Shown: piece after piece, positions 1 through 39,625 of the stretch
Numbering within the stretch: the first letter of the stretch is position 1
Layout: every line of letters starts with the position of its first letter
Program-made: the position numbers and the translations under genes
Notes under the pieces: generated by a model
The model's database searches: none
What the model saw: the letters and a program-made list of their open reading frames with translations, nothing else
Told to the model about the DNA's origin: nothing
IMG/VR virus record: IMGVR_UViG_2545824712_000011
Strand: one strand, 5' to 3'
DNA: 39,625 nt
DNA from: a virus
Taxonomy: Duplodnaviria > Heunggongvirae > Uroviricota > Caudoviricetes

Positions 1-327
1 CTACTTTTTTGCACGCCCATATTCAACGGCTTCTTTAAGGAGTTCATTTTCCATCGTTTTTTTGCCGAGCAGGCGCTGGAGTTCTTTAATCTGCTTCATG
101 GCAGCAGCAAGTTCAGAGGCAGGAACGACCTGTTCTCCTGCGGCCACAGCAGTAAGACTTCCCTCCTGGTATTGCTTGCGCCAGAGAAATAACTGGCTGG
201 CTGCCACACCGTGTTGCCGGGCAACAAGGGAGACCGTCATTCCCGGTTCAAAACTCTGCTGAACAATAGCGATCTTTTCCTGTGTAGTACGCCGTCTGCG
301 TTTCTCCGGTCCTAAGACATCAATCAT
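1..327 (-). CDS. insC: IS2 transposase OrfA (InsC); 3' end coincides with window edge
   Basis: Translation [56 protein letters not shown]... matches IS2 InsC as recalled; A6G slippery run sits just before the apparent TAG at the window edge. Confidence 0.85.
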
Positions 328-418: not shown

Positions 419-2217
419 GATGCCTGATGTAATGCTGAAAGTTTAGTGCCATTAGAGCCTGTCTGATAACCAATACCTGTATGTTCACCATAGAATCTTG
501 AATGATATTTACTCCCTCTAACGTAGTCATCAGCGATAGAACTACCGCTTGTTTGCTTTATGAATTTGAACCCATCACAAATATCAAACCCACGGCATTG
601 ATACTGGCTTAACTCGTCAGATGTATTCTTAAGAAGGGTAATCCCTTTGTGTGCCCGAACATATCCAGATGATATCCTAACTTGTGTTGGTCCATTCTGT
701 TCATTAGTTGGCAATGATATGAAGTGCGTCACACCTACCGCATTGTCTTCCTTAAGATCGCATGAGATATTTGACAACTCCATTAGCGAAGTAGCATCCT
801 GCTGAACTATATCTGTAAAATCTAAGCAATGATCTCCTGTGACACCCTCAATACCTAGACCATCAATACTTAAAGATCTAAATTGATAGAACTTATGTGG
901 TAATTTACATCCATCCGACGCGATATTTGTGGCCTTAACATACATCAATGGGTAAGGACTGTTCACCGGATCATATGTTGTTCTATCAATAGCCGCGCCC
1001 CACAGATATCCGTAGTCACAATGCCTTGCCCAGTTGGAAGAGAATGTAGTAGATGTGCCAGCCAAACCGAAACCATAGATACAATCATATGCTTGGTTGT
1101 TTGTAACATTACTGACAAAGCATGATAAGGGAAGTGCAAATTTATAATGTAGAAATATGTTATTTTTAATATCATATTCACTACCACCGCCAAAAGTTTG
1201 TGTTTGACCAGAAATGACCAATGGGCTACCTGAATATTCATCGTCAGCGTTGCGAAAACACATATTCTTTACTTTAAGATTGTGCCCCCAACTTCCCATA
1301 ACAAAACCACCACTTCCTGATGTATAAACAATACTTTTTTGTGGATTAATCCCATATAGATTTAGACTAATCCCTTCCCATCTAAACTGGCTAATGTCAA
1401 TTTGAGTGTTACCAATATATATAGGCTGGTCTATGAAAACAGGAAGCTTAGTTAGATAAGCTTTATTAAGTGCTAATCCATCATTTGTTACACCTGTTAA
1501 ATCAACGCCACCCATGCTTGGCGCTCTAGGATACCCTGTGGCCTGAATAGTACTCCAGTCAATATATGGAGCATCCATCCACGCTCCAAACATACGTGGT
1601 GTTACGTACCCCTTACCTTGAAGATCACGTTTCCAGCGTTTACCACCCGCAGTGACAATGACCATGCCGTTATCATCTGCAGAAGTAGAATCTGTGAAAT
1701 CGGCCACAAACAGACCACCACCAGTATCACCTGATACTGTCGGCTTCATGCCTGTAGTGTGGAAGTCGACGAAAATCTTTTGCTGATCTCGCTCAGGCTC
1801 AATTGTCCTTAACATTGCTATATCAGGGCATGTCCCGATGTATTTAAGACCGTCTTCCCCTGATAGAGATACTTTAAGCTGATCAGGATCATATTTAAGA
1901 ACATTCGGAAAATAGAACTGCTGTGCACCATATGCATCATAAACAGCCATAGAATGGCCTTGCACAGTTACGAACTTGGCAATCTGTCCGTTATATACAG
2001 GGTAACCAGCAGCGTTAATGATTATTGGTTGCGAAACAGGAACATGAGAACCGTCTTCATTCTCTACATAAACCTGAATCCGGTTTTCAGGATTTACCGG
2101 GTCAGTGTCAATTTTCCCGATATAAATTTCGCCATTGGCTACGGCTTTAAAAGAACGCGCCATAGTGAAAAGTTGCGAAGGCATCGATACGATCACATTG
2201 GCTGTAATGTCTGTCAT
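403..2217 (-). CDS. Tailspike protein: P22/Sf6/HK620-type N-terminal head-binding domain plus divergent receptor-binding domain; 3' end replaced by IS2
   Basis: N-terminus [59 protein letters not shown]... matches tailspike head-binding domains; last four to five codons and the stop are IS2-derived (IS2 end at 418). Confidence 0.85.
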
Positions 2218-3253: not shown

Positions 3254-3321
3254 GTTGGTTTTTCTCCACGAATTTACCGACAACCGAAGCCCTGACTGTT
3301 CCCGCAGTTGGGGCTTCAACT

Positions 3322-20518: not shown

Positions 20519-21029
20519 GCTCTACCCCTTCATTGAGGGGATTTGCTCTATTTAATTAGGAATAAGGTCGATTACTGATAGAACAAATCCAGGCTACTGT
20601 GTTTAGCAATCAGATTTGTTCGTGACCGATATGCACGGGCAAAACGGCATGAGGTTGTTAGCGCAGCCTCCTGCCACCCGCTTTCACGAAGATCATGTGT
20701 AGAAGGCCGCAGCGTAACTATCACTGATGAATTCAGGATAGCCAGTGGCTACGGCTCAGTTTGGGTTGTGGCGGCCGGAATCGAACCGGCTTCCATCGGT
20801 GCGCTGCCGATTGCAGTACGCGCGGCGGTCAGCTACATGACTAGTATTTTCACTGTCGCCTATCTGCTAGCTCGCCATTGAGCTTCACCACAACGATAAG
20901 AGCACTGCGCGGCACCTTTCACCAATTCCGCGAGGTCTGCGGGTTCAATGCTCTTACCTGTTGTGCAAACAAAAAAAGCCACCGTTGCAACTTAAGAGTC
21001 ACTAACGGCAGCTTACCTTCTAATTATGG
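20519..21029 (-). promoter_or_regulatory. Late regulatory region between Q and lysis genes (expected PR-prime/qut/tR-prime)
   Basis: About 510 bp noncoding; hairpin plus U-tract on minus strand near 20957-21003 (GCUGCCGUU...AACGGUGGC then UUUUUUU). Confidence 0.5.
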
Positions 21030-35837: not shown

Positions 35838-35850
35838 GGTTTTTTATTGC
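35829..35850 (+). terminator. Hairpin plus T-tract
   Basis: CGCC-TGAT-GGCG then GTTTTTTATT. Confidence 0.4.
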
Positions 35851-35855
35851 CTGAT

Positions 35856-35871
35856 TTGCAGGTTCGATTCC
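35856..35871 (+). other. tRNA T-arm-like fragment TTGCAGGTTCGATTCC
   Basis: Canonical T-stem/T-loop sequence with no upstream tRNA body; 19 bp before xis ATG. Confidence 0.6.
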
Positions 35872-35890
35872 CTATTCGGAGATAGCACTC

Positions 35891-36091
35891 ATGCAACACG
35901 AACTACAGCCTGATTCCCTGGTTGATTTGAAATTCATCATGGCTGATACTGGCTTTGGTAAAACCTTCATCTACGACCGGATTAAGTCCGGCGACCTGCC
36001 AAAAGCCAAAGTTATCCACGGTCGAGCAAGATGGTTATATCGTGACCATTGTGAATTCAAAAATAAGCTCTTAAGCCGCGCCAATGGGTAA
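35891..36091 (+). CDS. xis: Excisionase / AlpA-family DNA-binding protein
   Basis: HTH-like FIMADTGFGKTFIYDRIKSGDLPKAKVIHGRARWLYRD; last gene of early-left operon. Confidence 0.7.
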   Translation: MQHELQPDSLVDLKFIMADTGFGKTFIYDRIKSGDLPKAKVIHGRARWLYRDHCEFKNKLLSRANG

Positions 36092-36164
36092 AATAGCGGG
36101 TAAAATATTTCTCACATCTAAAAAATACCATTCCAATCAACCCCCTGCCGCTTCAAGTAGATGT

Positions 36165-36179
36165 CTGCAGGGGACACCA
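36165..36179 (+). other. tRNA 3' end fragment CTGCAGGGGACACCA (att core candidate)
   Basis: Abuts exactly the T-arm fragment at 35856-35871 to form ...GCAGG-TTCGATT-CCTGC-AGGGGAC-A-CCA; 165 bp upstream of int. Confidence 0.65.
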
Positions 36180-36303
36180 TCCCGCCGTACACTACCGTCT
36201 ACCATTGTCTATAAACCCCATGTAACCATATAAAAATAAAGAGATTTTATTCTCATGACGTCCATTGCCGTCTATTGAAATCAAGTAAATCTATGGGGCA
36301 TAA

Positions 36304-36343
36304 TTGGGGGCATTGCTGGTTCGATTGTAAATGTGCCCCCAAT
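36304..36343 (+). promoter_or_regulatory. Stem-loop (9-bp stem TTGGGGGCA/TGCCCCCAA) ending 1 nt before int ATG
   Basis: Read directly; 21-nt loop contains GGTTCGATT. Confidence 0.6.
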
Positions 36344-37630
36344 ATGTCCAGAAATACCCTCAACAAATTAACAGACCGTCAGTGCAAAGCAGCTAAGCCA
36401 CGAGACAAAACTTATAAATTGTCTGATGGTGGTGGTCTTTATCTTGAAGTATCCCAGACCGGGTCGAAGTATTGGCGAATGAAGTATCGCCGCCCATCAG
36501 ATAAGAAAGAAGACAGACTTGCTTTTGGTGTATATCCAACCATTAGCTTACAAGACGCCAGAGAAAAACGAGACAACGCCAAAAAGTTGTTAGTCAAGGG
36601 GATAGATCCCAAAGCAGAGCAAAGAGCAGCAAAAGCAGAAGAAAAAGGTGCATTCACTTTTGAGACAATAGGACGTCAATGGGTTGAAAGCCACCAGATG
36701 TGGAACGAAGCCCACCGAAAACGCGTACTTAGAAGCCTTGAAATGTATATTTTCCCTCACATTGGCACTTCGGATATTCGCAAACTGGAGGCGATGACAA
36801 TTTTACCTTTGTTTAAGAAGGTAGATGACGCCGGGAAACACGATACAGCCAACCGACTTAAACAACGAGTTAAGGACATCATACATAGCGCCCGTCTGAG
36901 CGGCATTAAGACAGAAATCATCACGAATGATCTCGATGTCCGGTTAATGCAATATGAAACTAAGCATCATGCCGCACTACATCCCAGAGATTTACCAGAC
37001 TTTTTCACTCGATTGGGCAGCTTTAAAGGTAATCCTCTTACCCGCCTTGCCATTGAGCTAACCATGTTGACCTTTGTTCGTTCAAGCGAGTTAAGGTTTG
37101 CCCGTTGGAAAGAGTTTGACCTTGATCGGGCTGAGTGGATTATCCCTAAAAAAAGAGAGCCTATCGATGGTGTGAGGTTTTCCACCCGTGGCACAAAGAC
37201 GGGAAAAGACGAACATATCGTGCTTCTTAGCCGTCAGGCTGTTTCTATTGTAAAGCAGTTGAGAGAACTAAGCGGAAGCTACGATGTTGTGTTTCCGAAT
37301 GAAAGAAACACCAAAGGCGTGATGAGTGAAAACACGGTAAACAAGGCATTACGCTTAATGGGCTATAACACGCAAGAAGACGTAACTGGACATGGATTCC
37401 GTGCCACAGCCTGTAGTTCCCTGATGGAGTCCGGTTTGTGGCAGGAGGACGCAGTAGAGCGCCAGATGAGCCACAAAGAATATAAAGACGTTAAAAGAGC
37501 CTACAAGCACAAGGCTGATTACTTAGAAGAGCGCAAACTAATGCTTCAATGGTGGGCAGATTATCTGGACGCCAATCGAGAAATACACATAAGCCCTTAC
37601 GAGTTCGGAAGGAGAACACGCCGTGACTAA
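36344..37630 (+). CDS. int: Tyrosine integrase, P4 family
   Basis: N-terminus MSRNTLNKLTDRQCKAAKPRDKTYKLSDGGGLYLEV... and C-terminal HGFRAT...VKRAYKHKADYLEERKLMLQWWADYLD typical of P4-like integrases. Confidence 0.9.
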   Translation: MSRNTLNKLTDRQCKAAKPRDKTYKLSDGGGLYLEVSQTGSKYWRMKYRRPSDKKEDRLAFGVYPTISLQDAREKRDNAKKLLVKGIDPKAEQRAAKAEEKGAFTFETIGRQWVESHQMWNEAHRKRVLRSLEMYIFPHIGTSDIRKLEAMTILPLFKKVDDAGKHDTANRLKQRVKDIIHSARLSGIKTEIITNDLDVRLMQYETKHHAALHPRDLPDFFTRLGSFKGNPLTRLAIELTMLTFVRSSELRFARWKEFDLDRAEWIIPKKREPIDGVRFSTRGTKTGKDEHIVLLSRQAVSIVKQLRELSGSYDVVFPNERNTKGVMSENTVNKALRLMGYNTQEDVTGHGFRATACSSLMESGLWQEDAVERQMSHKEYKDVKRAYKHKADYLEERKLMLQWWADYLDANREIHISPYEFGRRTRRD

Positions 37631-38378
37631 GATGACAGGACTAGATGCGTTTTATAACGAGTCAGAAGATAAAATCTGGTTTGGTAATCTGATCAGCGAA
37701 CTGGCAAGACTAAACAATGAAAATGAAAGAATGATAGCTGCCGCTATCTTAAGTAACTACAGATTGAGCAAGACTAAACCAGATACTTTAGGGGGGCTGG
37801 GCTTTTATCAGTTCGATTGGGTATCTGGTTTTACGACAAATGAAGACTTTGAAAAGCAGTGTGTGGAGTTTTTAGGTCTTCTGGCTATGGGGCATGAATA
37901 CAGGGAGAGCCCGATACCGGGGGAAGAAGGGACTTTCAACGTTAGGAAAGGAGAAGACTTTTTATATCACGATGATGAGGATGATTGGTATGGGTCTTAC
38001 GATTCGTTTTATTTCAAGCGATCCGAGGTTGTGAACTTCTTCCCAGAACTGGATATGAATGTTCCAGATAACGAACCAGAAATTGGAGCACTGTCAAAAA
38101 AAGTAGAAAGAGAACAAAACTGGAGAGGAAAAGATACGGCTTTAAAGATGATCGCCGGAATGGCGATTGCCTTATTTGAATCAAGCAAAGATTTCCATAG
38201 TGGAGGAAACCTTAGTATCAATAGGGTTAGTGCCCAAGTAATAGAAAACAACATAATATTCGGGAACGATGAAGACAGCGATACCCACCCAGATACATTT
38301 CGGAGATTGCTAACGAACGCTTTGGATAAGTACGCCCCCAAATTTAAGAACAAAGCAACCAAAAAGCGTCCAAAATAA
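37623..38378 (+). CDS. Hypothetical 251-aa protein co-transcribed with int
   Basis: Start overlaps int stop (GTG 37623 or ATG 37632); acidic, no recognisable motif. Confidence 0.55.
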   Translation: MTKMTGLDAFYNESEDKIWFGNLISELARLNNENERMIAAAILSNYRLSKTKPDTLGGLGFYQFDWVSGFTTNEDFEKQCVEFLGLLAMGHEYRESPIPGEEGTFNVRKGEDFLYHDDEDDWYGSYDSFYFKRSEVVNFFPELDMNVPDNEPEIGALSKKVEREQNWRGKDTALKMIAGMAIALFESSKDFHSGGNLSINRVSAQVIENNIIFGNDEDSDTHPDTFRRLLTNALDKYAPKFKNKATKKRPK

Positions 38379-38534
38379 AGGAAGGATGTTCCCAAATTGT
38401 GCGTTAGAACTAAAAAATAACGCCCAATTTGGGGTAATTCTATTCCCAAAAATTTTTTCTCCAAATTCACAGAAAACTTAAAAAAACAATGATTTACTAT
38501 CTCACATAGTCAAGCAACGTATTACGAGGTAGAT

Positions 38535-38726
38535 ATGAAAAAGTCGCTGATTCGGCTATCTGAGGTTTTGAAACGCACTGGCTATAGCAAGGCGTGGGTA
38601 TATGCTCTGATGAGCCGAGGACAATTCCCCCAATCAGTCAAGATTGGTGCTCGCGCAATAGCTTTTATTGAAAGCGAGATCGATGACTGGATCGATCAAC
38701 GTATAGCCGAATCGCGTAGCAACTAA
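38535..38726 (+). CDS. alpA: AlpA-family transcriptional regulator
   Basis: LIRLSEVLKRTGYSKAWVYALMSRGQFPQSVKIGARAIAFIESEIDDWI typical AlpA HTH. Confidence 0.8.
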   Translation: MKKSLIRLSEVLKRTGYSKAWVYALMSRGQFPQSVKIGARAIAFIESEIDDWIDQRIAESRSN

Positions 38727-38774
38727 AGAACAGAAACAAACAGGATACAAACAATACGTTATTAGGTATTAAGA

Positions 38775-38966
38775 ATGCAGTTGAAACCTACCAATCAAAA
38801 GCTGAACGTAACCCATGTTGATTTTGAAACCTTCGCGGCACTGATTAGATCAGAGCCACAAAAGGTGAGCACCAGCACCAGGGTTTATGATGTGAAATCC
38901 ACCAGCGGTGGAAAAGCTATCGGCATTGCCTCTGGCGATGATTACTTAGTAATAGATCTGATTTAA
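38775..38966 (+). CDS. Hypothetical protein
   Basis: 63-aa ORF downstream of alpA. Confidence 0.4.
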   Translation: MQLKPTNQKLNVTHVDFETFAALIRSEPQKVSTSTRVYDVKSTSGGKAIGIASGDDYLVIDLI

Positions 38967-39047
38967 TCGCACAAAAATTGTAGAGTAATTTGGGGAGACA
39001 GGAAGTCTCCTCCGTATTGCATTTTGGTACAACAGTAAGGGAATAAA

Positions 39048-39242
39048 ATGATTAATTACCTGACCGCTAAAGACGCAGCAGAATATCTTGGCGTCTGTCT
39101 GTCACGCTTCTATCAGTTAAAGCGATATATCCGAAGCTTTCCTCCCTATATAAATCAGACCATCAATGGTCGCAAGCGCCGGGTGTGGCTTGCCTCCAGC
39201 CTTGATCAATTTGCCGACAGATTTCTGGGGGGACGAAAATGA
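39048..39242 (+). CDS. Small HTH DNA-binding protein (excisionase/MerR-like)
   Basis: LTAKDAAEYLGVCLSRFYQLKR HTH-like. Confidence 0.5.
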   Translation: MINYLTAKDAAEYLGVCLSRFYQLKRYIRSFPPYINQTINGRKRRVWLASSLDQFADRFLGGRK

Positions 39243-39625
39243 GCACTCTTACACGCTCTCAGGTCGCCGCGAATATACGCGATATCCTACTAAGTGGCAG
39301 GAAGCTTACCCCAAAAGAGTTTGACGACATATTAAGGAAAGCCGGAAATCACGAACGTAGTCGCGTTTTAACGCTGTTACGCAACGATTGGGGAATTCCT
39401 GTTGAGCAGTTTAAAACAGGGGCGTATCACGTCACAGAACGCAATTTAGAAGCATACCACAGCGATAAAGACGAAACATTGAAGATCTGGAGGACGAACG
39501 CCAGATATGTAAAGACATTGCGTAAGGTAAACATAACGTTGTCGTTGTTGCGTGGGCTGGTGGGTAAAGTGCCTGAAGACACGCTTAGAACTGTTTACAA
39601 GGGTATTGAAACCAAATACCTGTGA
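39239..39625 (+). CDS. Hypothetical protein
   Basis: 128-aa ORF overlapping upstream stop; ends at window edge with TGA. Confidence 0.5.
   Translation: MSTLTRSQVAANIRDILLSGRKLTPKEFDDILRKAGNHERSRVLTLLRNDWGIPVEQFKTGAYHVTERNLEAYHSDKDETLKIWRTNARYVKTLRKVNITLSLLRGLVGKVPEDTLRTVYKGIETKYL

Follow-up and report, generated by a model that had tools for sequence, protein, structure and literature searches.

The prophages KplE1 (CPS-53), HK620 and Sf6 share a recombination module in which the excision factor, TorI, and the integrase, IntS, are encoded at opposite ends of the prophage. The crossover core of KplE1 is the 16-bp sequence CTGCAGGGGACACCAT (PMC2951348), annotated likewise in HK620 and Sf6 and given also in the Kapi1 paper. 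IntS arm-type sites have TAAA in common, and TorI recognizes five sites (I1–I5) reading GTTCG, GATCG or GTCCG, whose mutation abolishes TorI repression of intS (PMC2951348). TorI and IntS each repress intS by binding at the att site (PMC2951348), and the winged-helix excision factor RdfS binds and represses its own promoter (PMC11963761). In these systems the recombination proteins double as repressors by way of att-type sites of their own near a promoter (PintS and PrdfS, respectively). IntS/TorI phages produce the integrase at a constant low level, and synthesis of the excision factor is what triggers excision. The group that characterized the module named the check on this synthesis as an open question and concluded that excision control depends on excision-factor expression, which was then not understood (PMC2951348).

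We analyzed a 39,625-nt stretch of a virus record (IMGVR_UViG_2545824712_000011), hereafter the window, that carries the torI-attR part of this module near its right end (Table 1). The encoded TorI is 100% identical to HkaC of HK620 and gp18 of Sf6, the 16-bp core lies about 70 bp past torI, TAAA-containing arm sites (GGGTAAA) mark the 3′ end of torI, and its leader holds the same copy of a piece of the argW tRNA gene. The module itself is no different from that of KplE1, HK620 and Sf6. What is new is our reading of a 13-mer in the torI leader.

Table 1. Features of the window discussed in the text, in order of position.
Feature	Position	Strand	Remarks
Right-hand ~36 kb of P22-like prophage (Lederbergvirus, HK620/Sf6/CUS-3-type)	1–36180	+	Integrated in argW
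HK620-annotated cII site of 'phage integration' promoter (pI), TTGC-CTGAT-TTGC	35847–35859	+	Overlaps first 4 nt of piece 1
Piece 1, TTGCAGGTTCGATTCC	35856–35871	+	Exact 16-nt copy of argW nt 46–61
Conserved 13-mer, CAGGTTCGATTCC	35859–35871	+	argW nt 49–61; ends 19 nt before torI ATG
GTTCG pentamer inside 13-mer	35862–35866	+	Same as TorI recognition pentamer (PMC2951348)
torI Shine-Dalgarno, GGAG	35878–35881	+	Read from sequence; 6 nt past 13-mer
torI (hkaC/gene 18), 66-aa winged-helix recombination directionality factor (excisionase) of prophage	35891–36091	+	By identity and RefSeq name
Two tandem IntS arm-type sites, GGGTAAA (P arm of attR)	36086–36092, 36098–36104	+	At and just past torI stop codon
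Piece 2, CTGCAGGGGACACCA	36165–36179	+	argW nt 61–75
16-bp core, CTGCAGGGGACACCAT	36165–36180	+	Piece 2 plus T36180 (argW nt 61–75 plus 1); attR core of prophage; also truncated left island junction
Left 3.4 kb of separate ~9.5-kb argW-specific integrative island	36181–39625	+	
Second T-arm-like sequence, TTGCTGGTTCGATTGT	36313–36328	+	3 mismatches to piece 1; just upstream of island integrase start
Island P4-family integrase	36344–37630	+	Pfam Arm-DNA-bind_3, Phage_int_M, Phage_integrase
Island AlpA-type excision factor	38535–38726	+	Pfam Phage_AlpA

A prophage and an island in tandem at argW

The window is part of a tandem array at argW in which the right end of a prophage of the HK620/Sf6/KplE1 type, ending in torI, the P arm and the 16-bp core, is followed by an unrelated argW island. 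The evidence for this arrangement is that nucleotide similarity to HK620, Sf6, N7 and Kapi1 runs up to 36179/36180 and then ceases, that the island sits alone and directly at an intact argW in strain 600468, where the DNA after the tRNA gene is exactly that found here past 36180, and that a related complete genome has the order argW-intS...torI-core-island-core-dsdC, with three cores and two 13-mers. An earlier note on this DNA, made from the letters alone, had proposed to seek an intact tRNA-Arg and further core copies in the flanking genome; the related complete genome has both. The IntS integrase of the prophage and argW are located to the left of the window, whose left end carries an IS element, a tailspike head-binding domain, ant/arc and the sar RNA.

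The island occurs in 240 E. coli genomes and is adjacent to torI in 27 of them. Besides the integrase and AlpA it encodes a 251-aa ORF and HTH proteins. It resembles the P4-family islands known from tandem arrays at tRNA genes in having an integrase with all three domains next to the tRNA 3′ end, direct repeats of the tRNA 3′ segment at both ends and an AlpA of its own. The far-end repeat in strain 600468 is the 23-bp sequence TTCGATTCCTGCAGGGGACACCA. This terminal repeat begins in the T-loop (TTCGATTCC...), and the island crossover is probably within the T-loop. The array departs from the usual ones in that the phage is integrated between argW and the island, as a result of which only 15 of the 23 repeat bases remain at the left island junction, without the T-loop part. 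Tandem arrays are common at argW.

The earlier note had read the second of two tRNA-like pieces (piece 2 in Table 1) as the most likely att core for the integrase directly downstream. A partnership of this integrase with TorI is contradicted by the point at which phage similarity ends and by the layouts of strain 600468 and the complete genome, as well as by an identity of only 33% between the island integrase and IntS. Arrays at argW can present an unrelated integrase as the partner of an excision factor.

Two pieces of the argW gene

The right end of the prophage holds two pieces of tRNA sequence, which we compared with the annotated E. coli gene for tRNA-Arg(CCU), argW, reading ...GCTAATTGCAGGTTCGATTCCTGCAGGGGACACCA. 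Piece 1 runs from the T-stem 5′ strand through the T-loop and 2 nt into the 3′ strand. Together with piece 2 it gives argW nt 46–75 with zero mismatches, one C (nt 61) being common to both. This bears out the earlier observation of a continuous tRNA 3′ part on two fragments, together with its identification as argW. The 293 bp separating the pieces carry a single 66-aa ORF, whose product RefSeq names 'response regulator inhibitor TorI'. The gene called xis in the earlier note is therefore torI, which encodes the excision factor of the KplE1/HK620/Sf6 module. That the excision gene stands alone between the pieces and that no tRNA body precedes them is likewise supported by the ORF list, by ARAGORN (0 tRNAs in the window) and by Rfam (only the sar RNA, no tRNA); the DNA preceding piece 1 bears no relation to argW. 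With no cloverleaf recognized by ARAGORN or Rfam, piece 1 was rejected as a tRNA gene or pseudogene. A chance origin was also ruled out. By arithmetic, an exact 16-mer is expected about 2 × 39625/4^16 = 2e-5 times in the window, and a search allowing up to 3 mismatches gave 3 matches against 0.47 expected, a number reached in 0 shuffles.

Piece 2, with T36180, is the IntS/TorI crossover core, the 16 bp of which are the only sequence that attP, attL and attR share. The earlier designation of piece 2 as an att core holds, both for IntS/TorI and as the left junction of the island, whose integrase is argW-specific. Many lineages retain TTCGAT on the left side of the attP core, aligned with the tRNA register (TTCGATGTA followed by TGCAGG). 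This side of the attP core is unneeded for tRNA rebuilding, and its retention suggests that the integrase reads TTCGAT.

Piece 1, by contrast with piece 2, does not act as an att core: the attR that is functional in vitro starts within torI. This attR is 135 bp long and begins at CTCTTAAGCCGCGCCAATGG (PMC3509656), which maps to window position 36069 and leaves piece 1 about 200 bp outside the DNA needed for recombination by IntS, TorI and IHF. The primer for the minimal attR (PMC3509656) lies just upstream of the GGGTAAA pair, and the HK620 record annotates an 'attP' repeat in the region of these arm-type sites.

The annotation of phage CUS-3 is at odds with this placement. Its record (GenBank CP000711) labels as the attL/attR core the same 16 bp as piece 1, together with the argW counterpart. 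Judged from sequence comparison, the label appears mistaken and is explained by a truncated record. CUS-3 has an IntS-type integrase and an HK620-type arm; strain IHE3034, with a right end identical to that of CUS-3, continues into torI and then dsdC, and K-12, read directly, has the order torI, 16-bp core, dsdC. The CUS-3 record stops at the piece 1 repeat and leaves out torI and the true attR. Piece 1 and the argW T-arm form a 16-bp repeat that can mislead the calling of prophage boundaries.

A conserved 13-mer in the torI leader

The 16-mer of piece 1 is present, identical, upstream of torI in K-12 KplE1, HK620, Sf6 and CUS-3. We also found the 13-mer, or a core of 10–13 nt, in the Erwinia phages Midgardsormr38 (two tandem copies) and phiEt88, in Salmonella phage Emek, and in Edwardsiella, Hafnia, Pantoea (two species), Citrobacter and a MAG, and two copies of the 13-mer or its core in a metagenomic relative. 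The range of the 13-mer takes in six genera beyond the E. coli-type phages, plus metagenomic contigs. In 11 of 13 lineage leaders, the longest argW match has its last base at nt 61; seven leaders match over nt 49–61 and the two E. coli-type leaders over nt 46–61. The distance from the end of the 13-mer to the ATG is 17–21 nt in 11 of the 13, the exceptions being the two leaders with tandem copies, in which the first copy lies 31–32 nt away. GGAG(A/T) and the spacer are kept along with the motif in other lineages.

The sequence flanking the 13-mer is unrelated among lineages. Excision factors of the carriers are 30–100% identical, and some with unrelated flanks are only 30–50% identical. For example, phiEt88 keeps the motif with an integrase 75% identical to IntS and an excision factor of only 36–39% identity, and the metagenomic relative L106, whose excision factor is about 30% identical, keeps it as well. 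Among viral contig loci with a 100%-identical TorI, the E. coli-type leaders are almost invariant from −50 to −1 and mosaic beyond about −53, with either C or A at position 35872, the first after the motif. The 13-mer is therefore kept at a fixed distance from the excision-factor start in many members of the module, and the neighboring bases are not. Piece 1 thus lies within conserved, candidate regulatory sequence of related phages, an outcome that the earlier note had named as grounds to refute its own reading. Published site maps covering attL and the 135-bp attR make no mention of the leader 13-mer (PMC2951348; PMC3509656). The leader element appears undescribed; older papers on the module may mention the upstream argW identity.

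Roughly half of the lineages we sampled have no copy of the motif (Chronis, EhrS49, Cronobacter, Tatumella, Arsenophonus, Yersinia, Serratia DD3 and some Pantoea and Citrobacter), which shows that it is dispensable for the module. Every integrase with 61% or more identity to IntS targets argW, and we found no module of the same layout targeting another tRNA among IntS relatives. The next integrase relatives, at most 37% identical (Rhodobacter, Stenotrophomonas, Acinetobacter, epsilon15 and Pseudomonas phi297), have different gene layouts.

Conservation of this kind makes it unlikely that piece 1 is a neutral relic. In such a scenario, an ancestral attP with contiguous argW nt 46/49–75 would have been split between nt 61 and 62, either by insertion of torI and the P arm or by fusion of two att junctions, and piece 1 would now be functionless. 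The exact abutment of the two pieces (nt ..61 and 61..75) fits a split, as does the break at one tRNA position in nearly all lineages, which one ancient event predicts. The absence of the motif from about half of the lineages is also what a functionless remnant would allow. However, the 13-mer is intact where both flanks have diverged beyond recognition and the excision factors are 30–50% identical, it is duplicated in tandem in two lineages, and its 17–21 nt to the ATG are fixed. Furthermore, a simple insertion would not leave attP with a T-loop-like TTCGATGTA of its own, in register, to the left of the core. A search for the un-split pattern CTGATTTGCAGGTTCGATTCCTGCAGG gave 0 matches in IMG/VR (2.9 million viral contigs), so neither an un-split ancestor nor a torI-deleted derivative came to light, and the sole variant past piece 1 was the C-to-A change. 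The conserved 13-mer between unconserved flanks and the absence of an un-split form among these contigs speak against both suggestions of the earlier note, a relic of an older junction and an insertion of the excision gene into an att site. An ancient split may be the origin of the arrangement; it leaves the persistence of the 13-mer unexplained. Step-by-step origins of the T-arm piece through tandem lysogens, aberrant excision or recombination between two argW att types were also considered, and none yields the observed order.

Candidate roles of the leader 13-mer

We propose tentatively, and with somewhat less than even confidence, that the 13-mer is an operator in the torI leader for TorI, IntS or both. 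It is a candidate control because it carries the TorI pentamer, copies the host target and stands a few bases before the torI ribosome-binding site. The 13-mer would imitate the argW side of the attachment site, as it corresponds to the exact stretch that adjoins the predicted crossover block in attB, where the core-binding domain of the integrase would be expected to sit. We infer the crossover position, and hence the label 'half-site', from the blocks of identity between attP and attB. Binding of TorI and/or IntS to the leader 13-mer would damp torI expression, and IntS bound to its arm-type sites, which lie about 200 bp further on at the 3′ end of torI, could form a bridge to the leader. 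The outcome would be negative feedback on TorI, the protein whose synthesis triggers excision. The 13-mer would have arisen by capture or duplication of part of the tRNA gene and would persist for its function. Autorepression by RdfS offers a precedent. The putative torI operator would differ from the sites used by IntS/TorI and RdfS in copying a host tRNA rather than a phage arm site.

Several points count against an operator. Pentamers of the GTTCG type are frequent (1.6 expected per 421 bp versus 3 seen), and the five proven TorI sites have only the pentamer, plus a loose CAG, in common. TorI binding alone thus does not account for 13 conserved bases. The motif is also dispensable, as about half of the lineages sampled do without it. 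Lone core-type half-sites are usually weak integrase binders, as is the case for lambda Int. The 13-mer is a concrete and testable candidate for torI control.

A role at the RNA level appears quite unlikely. The T-arm-like leader could fold as a T-arm mimic or pair with the Shine-Dalgarno and so govern translation or processing, consistent with the constant orientation of the motif and its fixed distance to the Shine-Dalgarno and ATG. A full hairpin, GACAGG-TTCGATTC-CCTGTC, occurs in Edwardsiella and P. stewartii and a partly compensated one in Hafnia; GGUU..AUUCC can pair with GGAG(U/A)..AACC in several lineages, and UUCGA of E. coli with UCGGA of the Shine-Dalgarno. However, most lineages are without stems. 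Eight leaders were no better folded than their shuffles (z −1.3 to +0.8) and their predicted structures disagree, which leaves a stable or conserved RNA structure unsupported. The motif is invariant, and covariation is hence unscorable. A terminator-like hairpin followed by T6 just before the leader also puts upstream-derived transcription in doubt.

We regard as very unlikely that the leader is conserved as a pI-type promoter, activated by cII (C1) and driving the integrase for lysogeny, with an incidental tRNA identity. HK620 has a 'promoter, phage integration' and a cII site annotated exactly here, and Sf6 has a 'pI'. The place is that of lambda pI and its cII site upstream of xis, after a terminator-like sequence shared with lambda and before the excision-factor start, with positionally homologous TTGC repeats. 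An Arsenophonus relative has a lambda-like TTGCGTGTAATTG box in place of the motif. However, the spacing is N5 rather than the N6 of lambda. TTAC replaces the first TTGC in K-12 and in 30% of E. coli-type sequences, and the second is likewise variable, reading TTAC in some. Other genera have neither TTGC, and the conserved bases are downstream of the box. Thus, the lambda-type arrangement (TTGC-N6-TTGC on either side of a weak −35, conserved among relatives) was not found. Nor did we find sigma-70-like hexamers in the torI leader.

It is highly improbable that integrases with a crossover in the argW T-loop, the one of the neighboring island among them, use piece 1 as a docking site or pseudo-attB through which the phage could recombine with satellites or islands (for example, to excise torI plus island): the island repeat starts in the T-loop, piece 1 offers the left T-stem strand and T-loop and is the nearest copy (293 bp off) for a left island junction that lacks the T-loop, and argW arrays are common, but no insertion at piece 1 or recombinant junction through it was seen among viral contigs, most lineages lack the right half-site (CCTGC), and a phage should not conserve a site that benefits a parasite.

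The operator proposal can be widened to argW phages and islands in general, which would keep a T-arm copy by the start of a recombination gene (that of the excision factor in IntS/TorI phages and of the integrase in P4-type islands) as an 'attB-mimic' operator. We consider this generalization doubtful. If true, proteins that read the chromosomal target would also read the T-arm copy and determine how much of the excision trigger is made. Captured tRNA sequence would then have a new regulatory use, apart from tRNA rebuilding at integration. The second T-arm-like sequence of the window, in the island, is flanked by arm-type repeats (GGGGCAT). The same type of layout is found in attR-adjacent islands of Tatumella and Escherichia sp. 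E1V33 and, in a looser form, in Edwardsiella piscicida.

The torI end of the prophage and its attachment core

The two tRNA-like fragments described in the earlier note (pieces 1 and 2) together cover nt 46–75 of the tRNA-Arg gene argW without a mismatch, which bears out their proposed origin. The nucleotide assignments follow from the RefSeq-annotated argW gene adjoining yfdC in E. coli, whose 3′ end reads ...GCTAATTGCAGGTTCGATTCCTGCAGGGGACACCA. Shuffled sequences never reached the observed number of T-arm-like matches even with 3 mismatches allowed, so the exact 16-mer match is not due to chance. A tRNA body is lacking: neither ARAGORN nor Rfam detected a tRNA in the window. The 293 bp between the pieces contain a single ORF (66 aa) encoding TorI (HkaC/gp18); HK620, Sf6, Kapi1 and other phages have an excision factor with 100% identity to it.

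Coordinates of the features discussed (window positions, except for the comparison sequences in the last row, whose coordinates are local to each)
Feature	Sequence	Position	Strand	Remark
IS3-type transposase ORF		1–372	−	HTH_Tnp_1 domain
sar antisense RNA		3254–3321		Rfam RF00262, 94 bits
T-arm-like hairpin	GCCGG-TTCGATT-CCGGC, then CGCCACAACC	20777–20792	−	inside prophage
Piece 1	TTGCAGGTTCGATTCC	35856–35871	+	argW nt 46–61
13-mer (inner part of piece 1)		35859–35871		argW nt 49–61
Pentamer at 13-mer centre	GTTCG	35862–35866		
torI		35891–36091		
Second GTTCG pentamer	TAGTTCGTG	35899–35903	−	torI codons 3–5; inverted relative to the piece 1 copy
Phage-side attR primer	CTCTTAAGCCGCGCCAATGG	36069–36088		
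49-aa ORF		36084–36233		
Piece 2	CTGCAGGGGACACCA	36165–36179	+	argW nt 61–75
Island T-arm-like sequence	TTGCTGGTTCGATTGT	36313–36328		between arm-type repeats (GGGGCAT), just 5′ of the integrase start codon
Island integrase		36344–37630		
Island AlpA		38535–38726		
T-arm-like sequences of other argW islands		L114, about 1905–1960; L109, about 1915–1975; L116, about 1905–1965		

The match to HK620/Sf6/Kapi1-type phages ends at 36179/36180, where piece 2 ends. Piece 2 plus T36180 forms the 16-nt core CTGCAGGGGACACCAT, which borders KplE1/CPS-53 in K-12 and carries the attP core annotation of HK620 and Sf6 (PMC2951348). Piece 2 is an att core as first proposed, that of the KplE1/HK620/Sf6 module, and it doubles as the truncated left junction of the adjoining island. 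In this family, attP is flanked by the integrase and excision-factor genes, which therefore lie at opposite ends of the prophage (argW-intS ... torI-core). This order, together with the contents of the left edge of the window (IS fragment, tailspike, ant/arc and sar), places IntS and argW just left of the window. The window carries the features of a KplE1/HK620/Sf6-type module and of a tandem island, with the IntS end lying outside it. The prophage, core, TorI, arm sites and tandem island are all of well-described kinds.

The sar antisense RNA of the P22 immI region identifies the prophage as P22-like. The transposase ORF occupies the left edge of the window, with the tailspike gene on one side and the expected integrase region on the other, and seems to mark an IS element inserted in the prophage. 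The internal T-arm-like hairpin resembles the 3′ part of a tRNA, and ARAGORN and Rfam call nothing there. Some P22-like phages carry tRNA genes; the hairpin may be a tRNA remnant or simply coding sequence. The 49-aa ORF, equivalent to HK620 hkaB and Sf6 gene 17, extends from the torI stop through the P arm and att core into the island. Because its 3′ part depends on whether the phage is integrated, the ORF is unlikely to be a real gene.

Piece 1 is neither an att core nor a relic confined to this element. Excisive recombination proceeds in vitro with a 135-bp attR (PMC3509656) whose boundary falls about 200 bp short of piece 1, which rules out an att core there. The TorI binding sites (n = 5) are all on attL, the integrase side (PMC3509656; PMC2951348). 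Furthermore, piece 1 or its inner part recurs in the excision-factor leaders of relatives. The GenBank record of CUS-3 (CP000711; L002/L004) spans the DNA from the argW T-arm to piece 1, labelling both 16-mers 'att core'. In strain IHE3034, a stretch identical to the last 1732 bp of the record is followed by torI and then dsdC (L128 3233–3640), and K-12, read directly, has the same torI, 16-bp core and dsdC order. From these layouts, the CUS-3 record appears to end ~308 bp before the true prophage end and seems to omit torI and the real attR.

A separate island in tandem at argW

The DNA from 36181 on is present in 240 complete E. coli genomes and joined to torI in only 27. In strain 600468, the island directly follows an intact argW without a prophage and ends ~9.5 kb on at a 23-bp repeat (TTCGATTCCTGCAGGGGACACCA); among its products are a rolling-circle Rep, a SIR2 protein and a recombinase. 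Its integrase has the P4-family domain set and shares 33% identity with IntS. Contrary to the earlier pairing, this integrase, which belongs to a separate element, is the wrong partner for TorI.

The whole array is seen in the complete genome of Z1323HEC0011 (yfdC-argW-intS-(prophage remnant)-torI-core-island-core-dsdC), where the core occurs three times and the 13-mer twice. The phage arm (GATGT), not the tRNA (GATTC), immediately precedes piece 2. This implies IntS-mediated integration of the phage between argW and a pre-existing island, which left the island with only 15 of the 23 repeat bases at its left junction. Between strains, the integrase and Rep ends of the island stay the same while the cargo changes, being a SIR2-family protein in 600468 and GapS6a/GapS6b in Z1323HEC0011 (L005 21273–23753 versus L232 3609–7235). 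It seems to be a vehicle for interchangeable defence genes. The island integrase of Z1323HEC0011 is truncated (258 aa).

A conserved 13-mer in the excision-factor leader

The identical 16-mer lies 5′ of torI in K-12 KplE1, HK620, Sf6 and CUS-3. Among 46 distinct E. coli-type leaders, positions −50 to −1 from the ATG are nearly invariant and the sequence is mosaic beyond about −53; the main variant replaces the G of the first TTGC with A (30%). Directly 3′ of piece 1 stands either C or A; the sequence TTTACAGG occurs in some leaders. We also drew TorI relatives from a phage collection, from a protein database and from genomes taken one per species. CAGGTTCGATTCC, or a 10–13-nt core of it, recurs in constant orientation in relatives from six other genera and in metagenomic contigs. 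Carriers include Erwinia phages Midgardsormr38 (two tandem copies) and phiEt88, Salmonella phage Emek, Edwardsiella (3 species), Hafnia, Pantoea stewartii, Pantoea sp. BAV3049, Citrobacter sp., one MAG and one metagenomic relative with two copies. The motif is absent from about half of the sampled lineages.

The motif lies 17–21 nt from the ATG in 11 of 13 leaders; the other two are those with tandem copies, the first copy being 31–32 nt away. Flanking sequences cannot be aligned between lineages. Identity to argW stops at nt 61 in 11 of the 13, one base inside the IntS core, so that motif and core tile argW nt 49–75. The un-split arrangement was not found in any IMG/VR phage. In many lineages, attP itself carries T-loop-like DNA in tRNA register left of the core (TTCGATGTA followed by TGCAGG), which is not what splitting a tRNA segment by simple insertion would produce. 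A TorI relative from Arsenophonus nasoniae (78% identical) lacks the T-arm motif (L118 about 1440–1500) and has a lambda-pI-like box, TTGCGTGAGATTTGCGTGTAATTG, in its position. In this excision-factor family, leaders seem to behave as exchangeable regulatory cassettes. The accessible literature on the module makes no mention of a tRNA-derived leader 13-mer, though an earlier description is possible.

Possible roles of the leader motif

The pentamers GTTCG, GATCG and GTCCG are recognized by TorI and mediate its repression of intS, a gene repressed by IntS as well; torI expression is thought to govern excision (PMC2951348). RdfS, another winged-helix excision factor, binds its own promoter, leading to autorepression (PMC11963761). 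GTTCG lies in the middle of the 13-mer, whose 3′ half (GATTCC) adjoins the block common to attP and attB. The attP inverted repeat GATGTC-TGCAGGG-GACACC leads us to infer TGCAGGG as the putative 7-bp overlap and GATTCC as the putative attB-side integrase half-site. We tentatively prefer a model, possible rather than probable, in which the 13-mer mimics the attB left arm and would be bound in the torI leader by TorI and/or IntS as an operator. phiEt88 retains the motif with an integrase 75% identical to IntS, an excision factor only 36–39% identical and different P′-arm repeats, which argues that TorI-type binding is not the sole constraint. The leader motif is a regulatory candidate open to testing.

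A neutral relic is an unlikely account of the motif. An RNA leader element is decidedly unlikely, as the leader folds are neither significant nor consistent. Membership in the annotated cII/pI promoter is very unlikely, for its N5-spaced TTGC boxes are not conserved. That the motif docks T-loop-specific integrases, for example that of the neighbouring island, is highly improbable, as no recombinants through piece 1 were found among viral contigs.

The two GTTCG pentamers bracket the torI SD and ATG; the second is not kept in Midgardsormr38, and the regional pentamer count is not above chance.

The T-arm-like sequence of the island is flanked by two direct arm-type repeats and one inverted. The same layout occurs in the attR-following islands of Tatumella and Escherichia sp. 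E1V33 and, more loosely, of Edwardsiella piscicida. Three of the four islands keep GGTTCGAT although their arm repeats differ, Tatumella and Escherichia sp. among them; the Edwardsiella version is TGTTCAAT. These copies hint that T-loop sequences near the starts of recombination genes may be a wider trait of argW-targeting elements.
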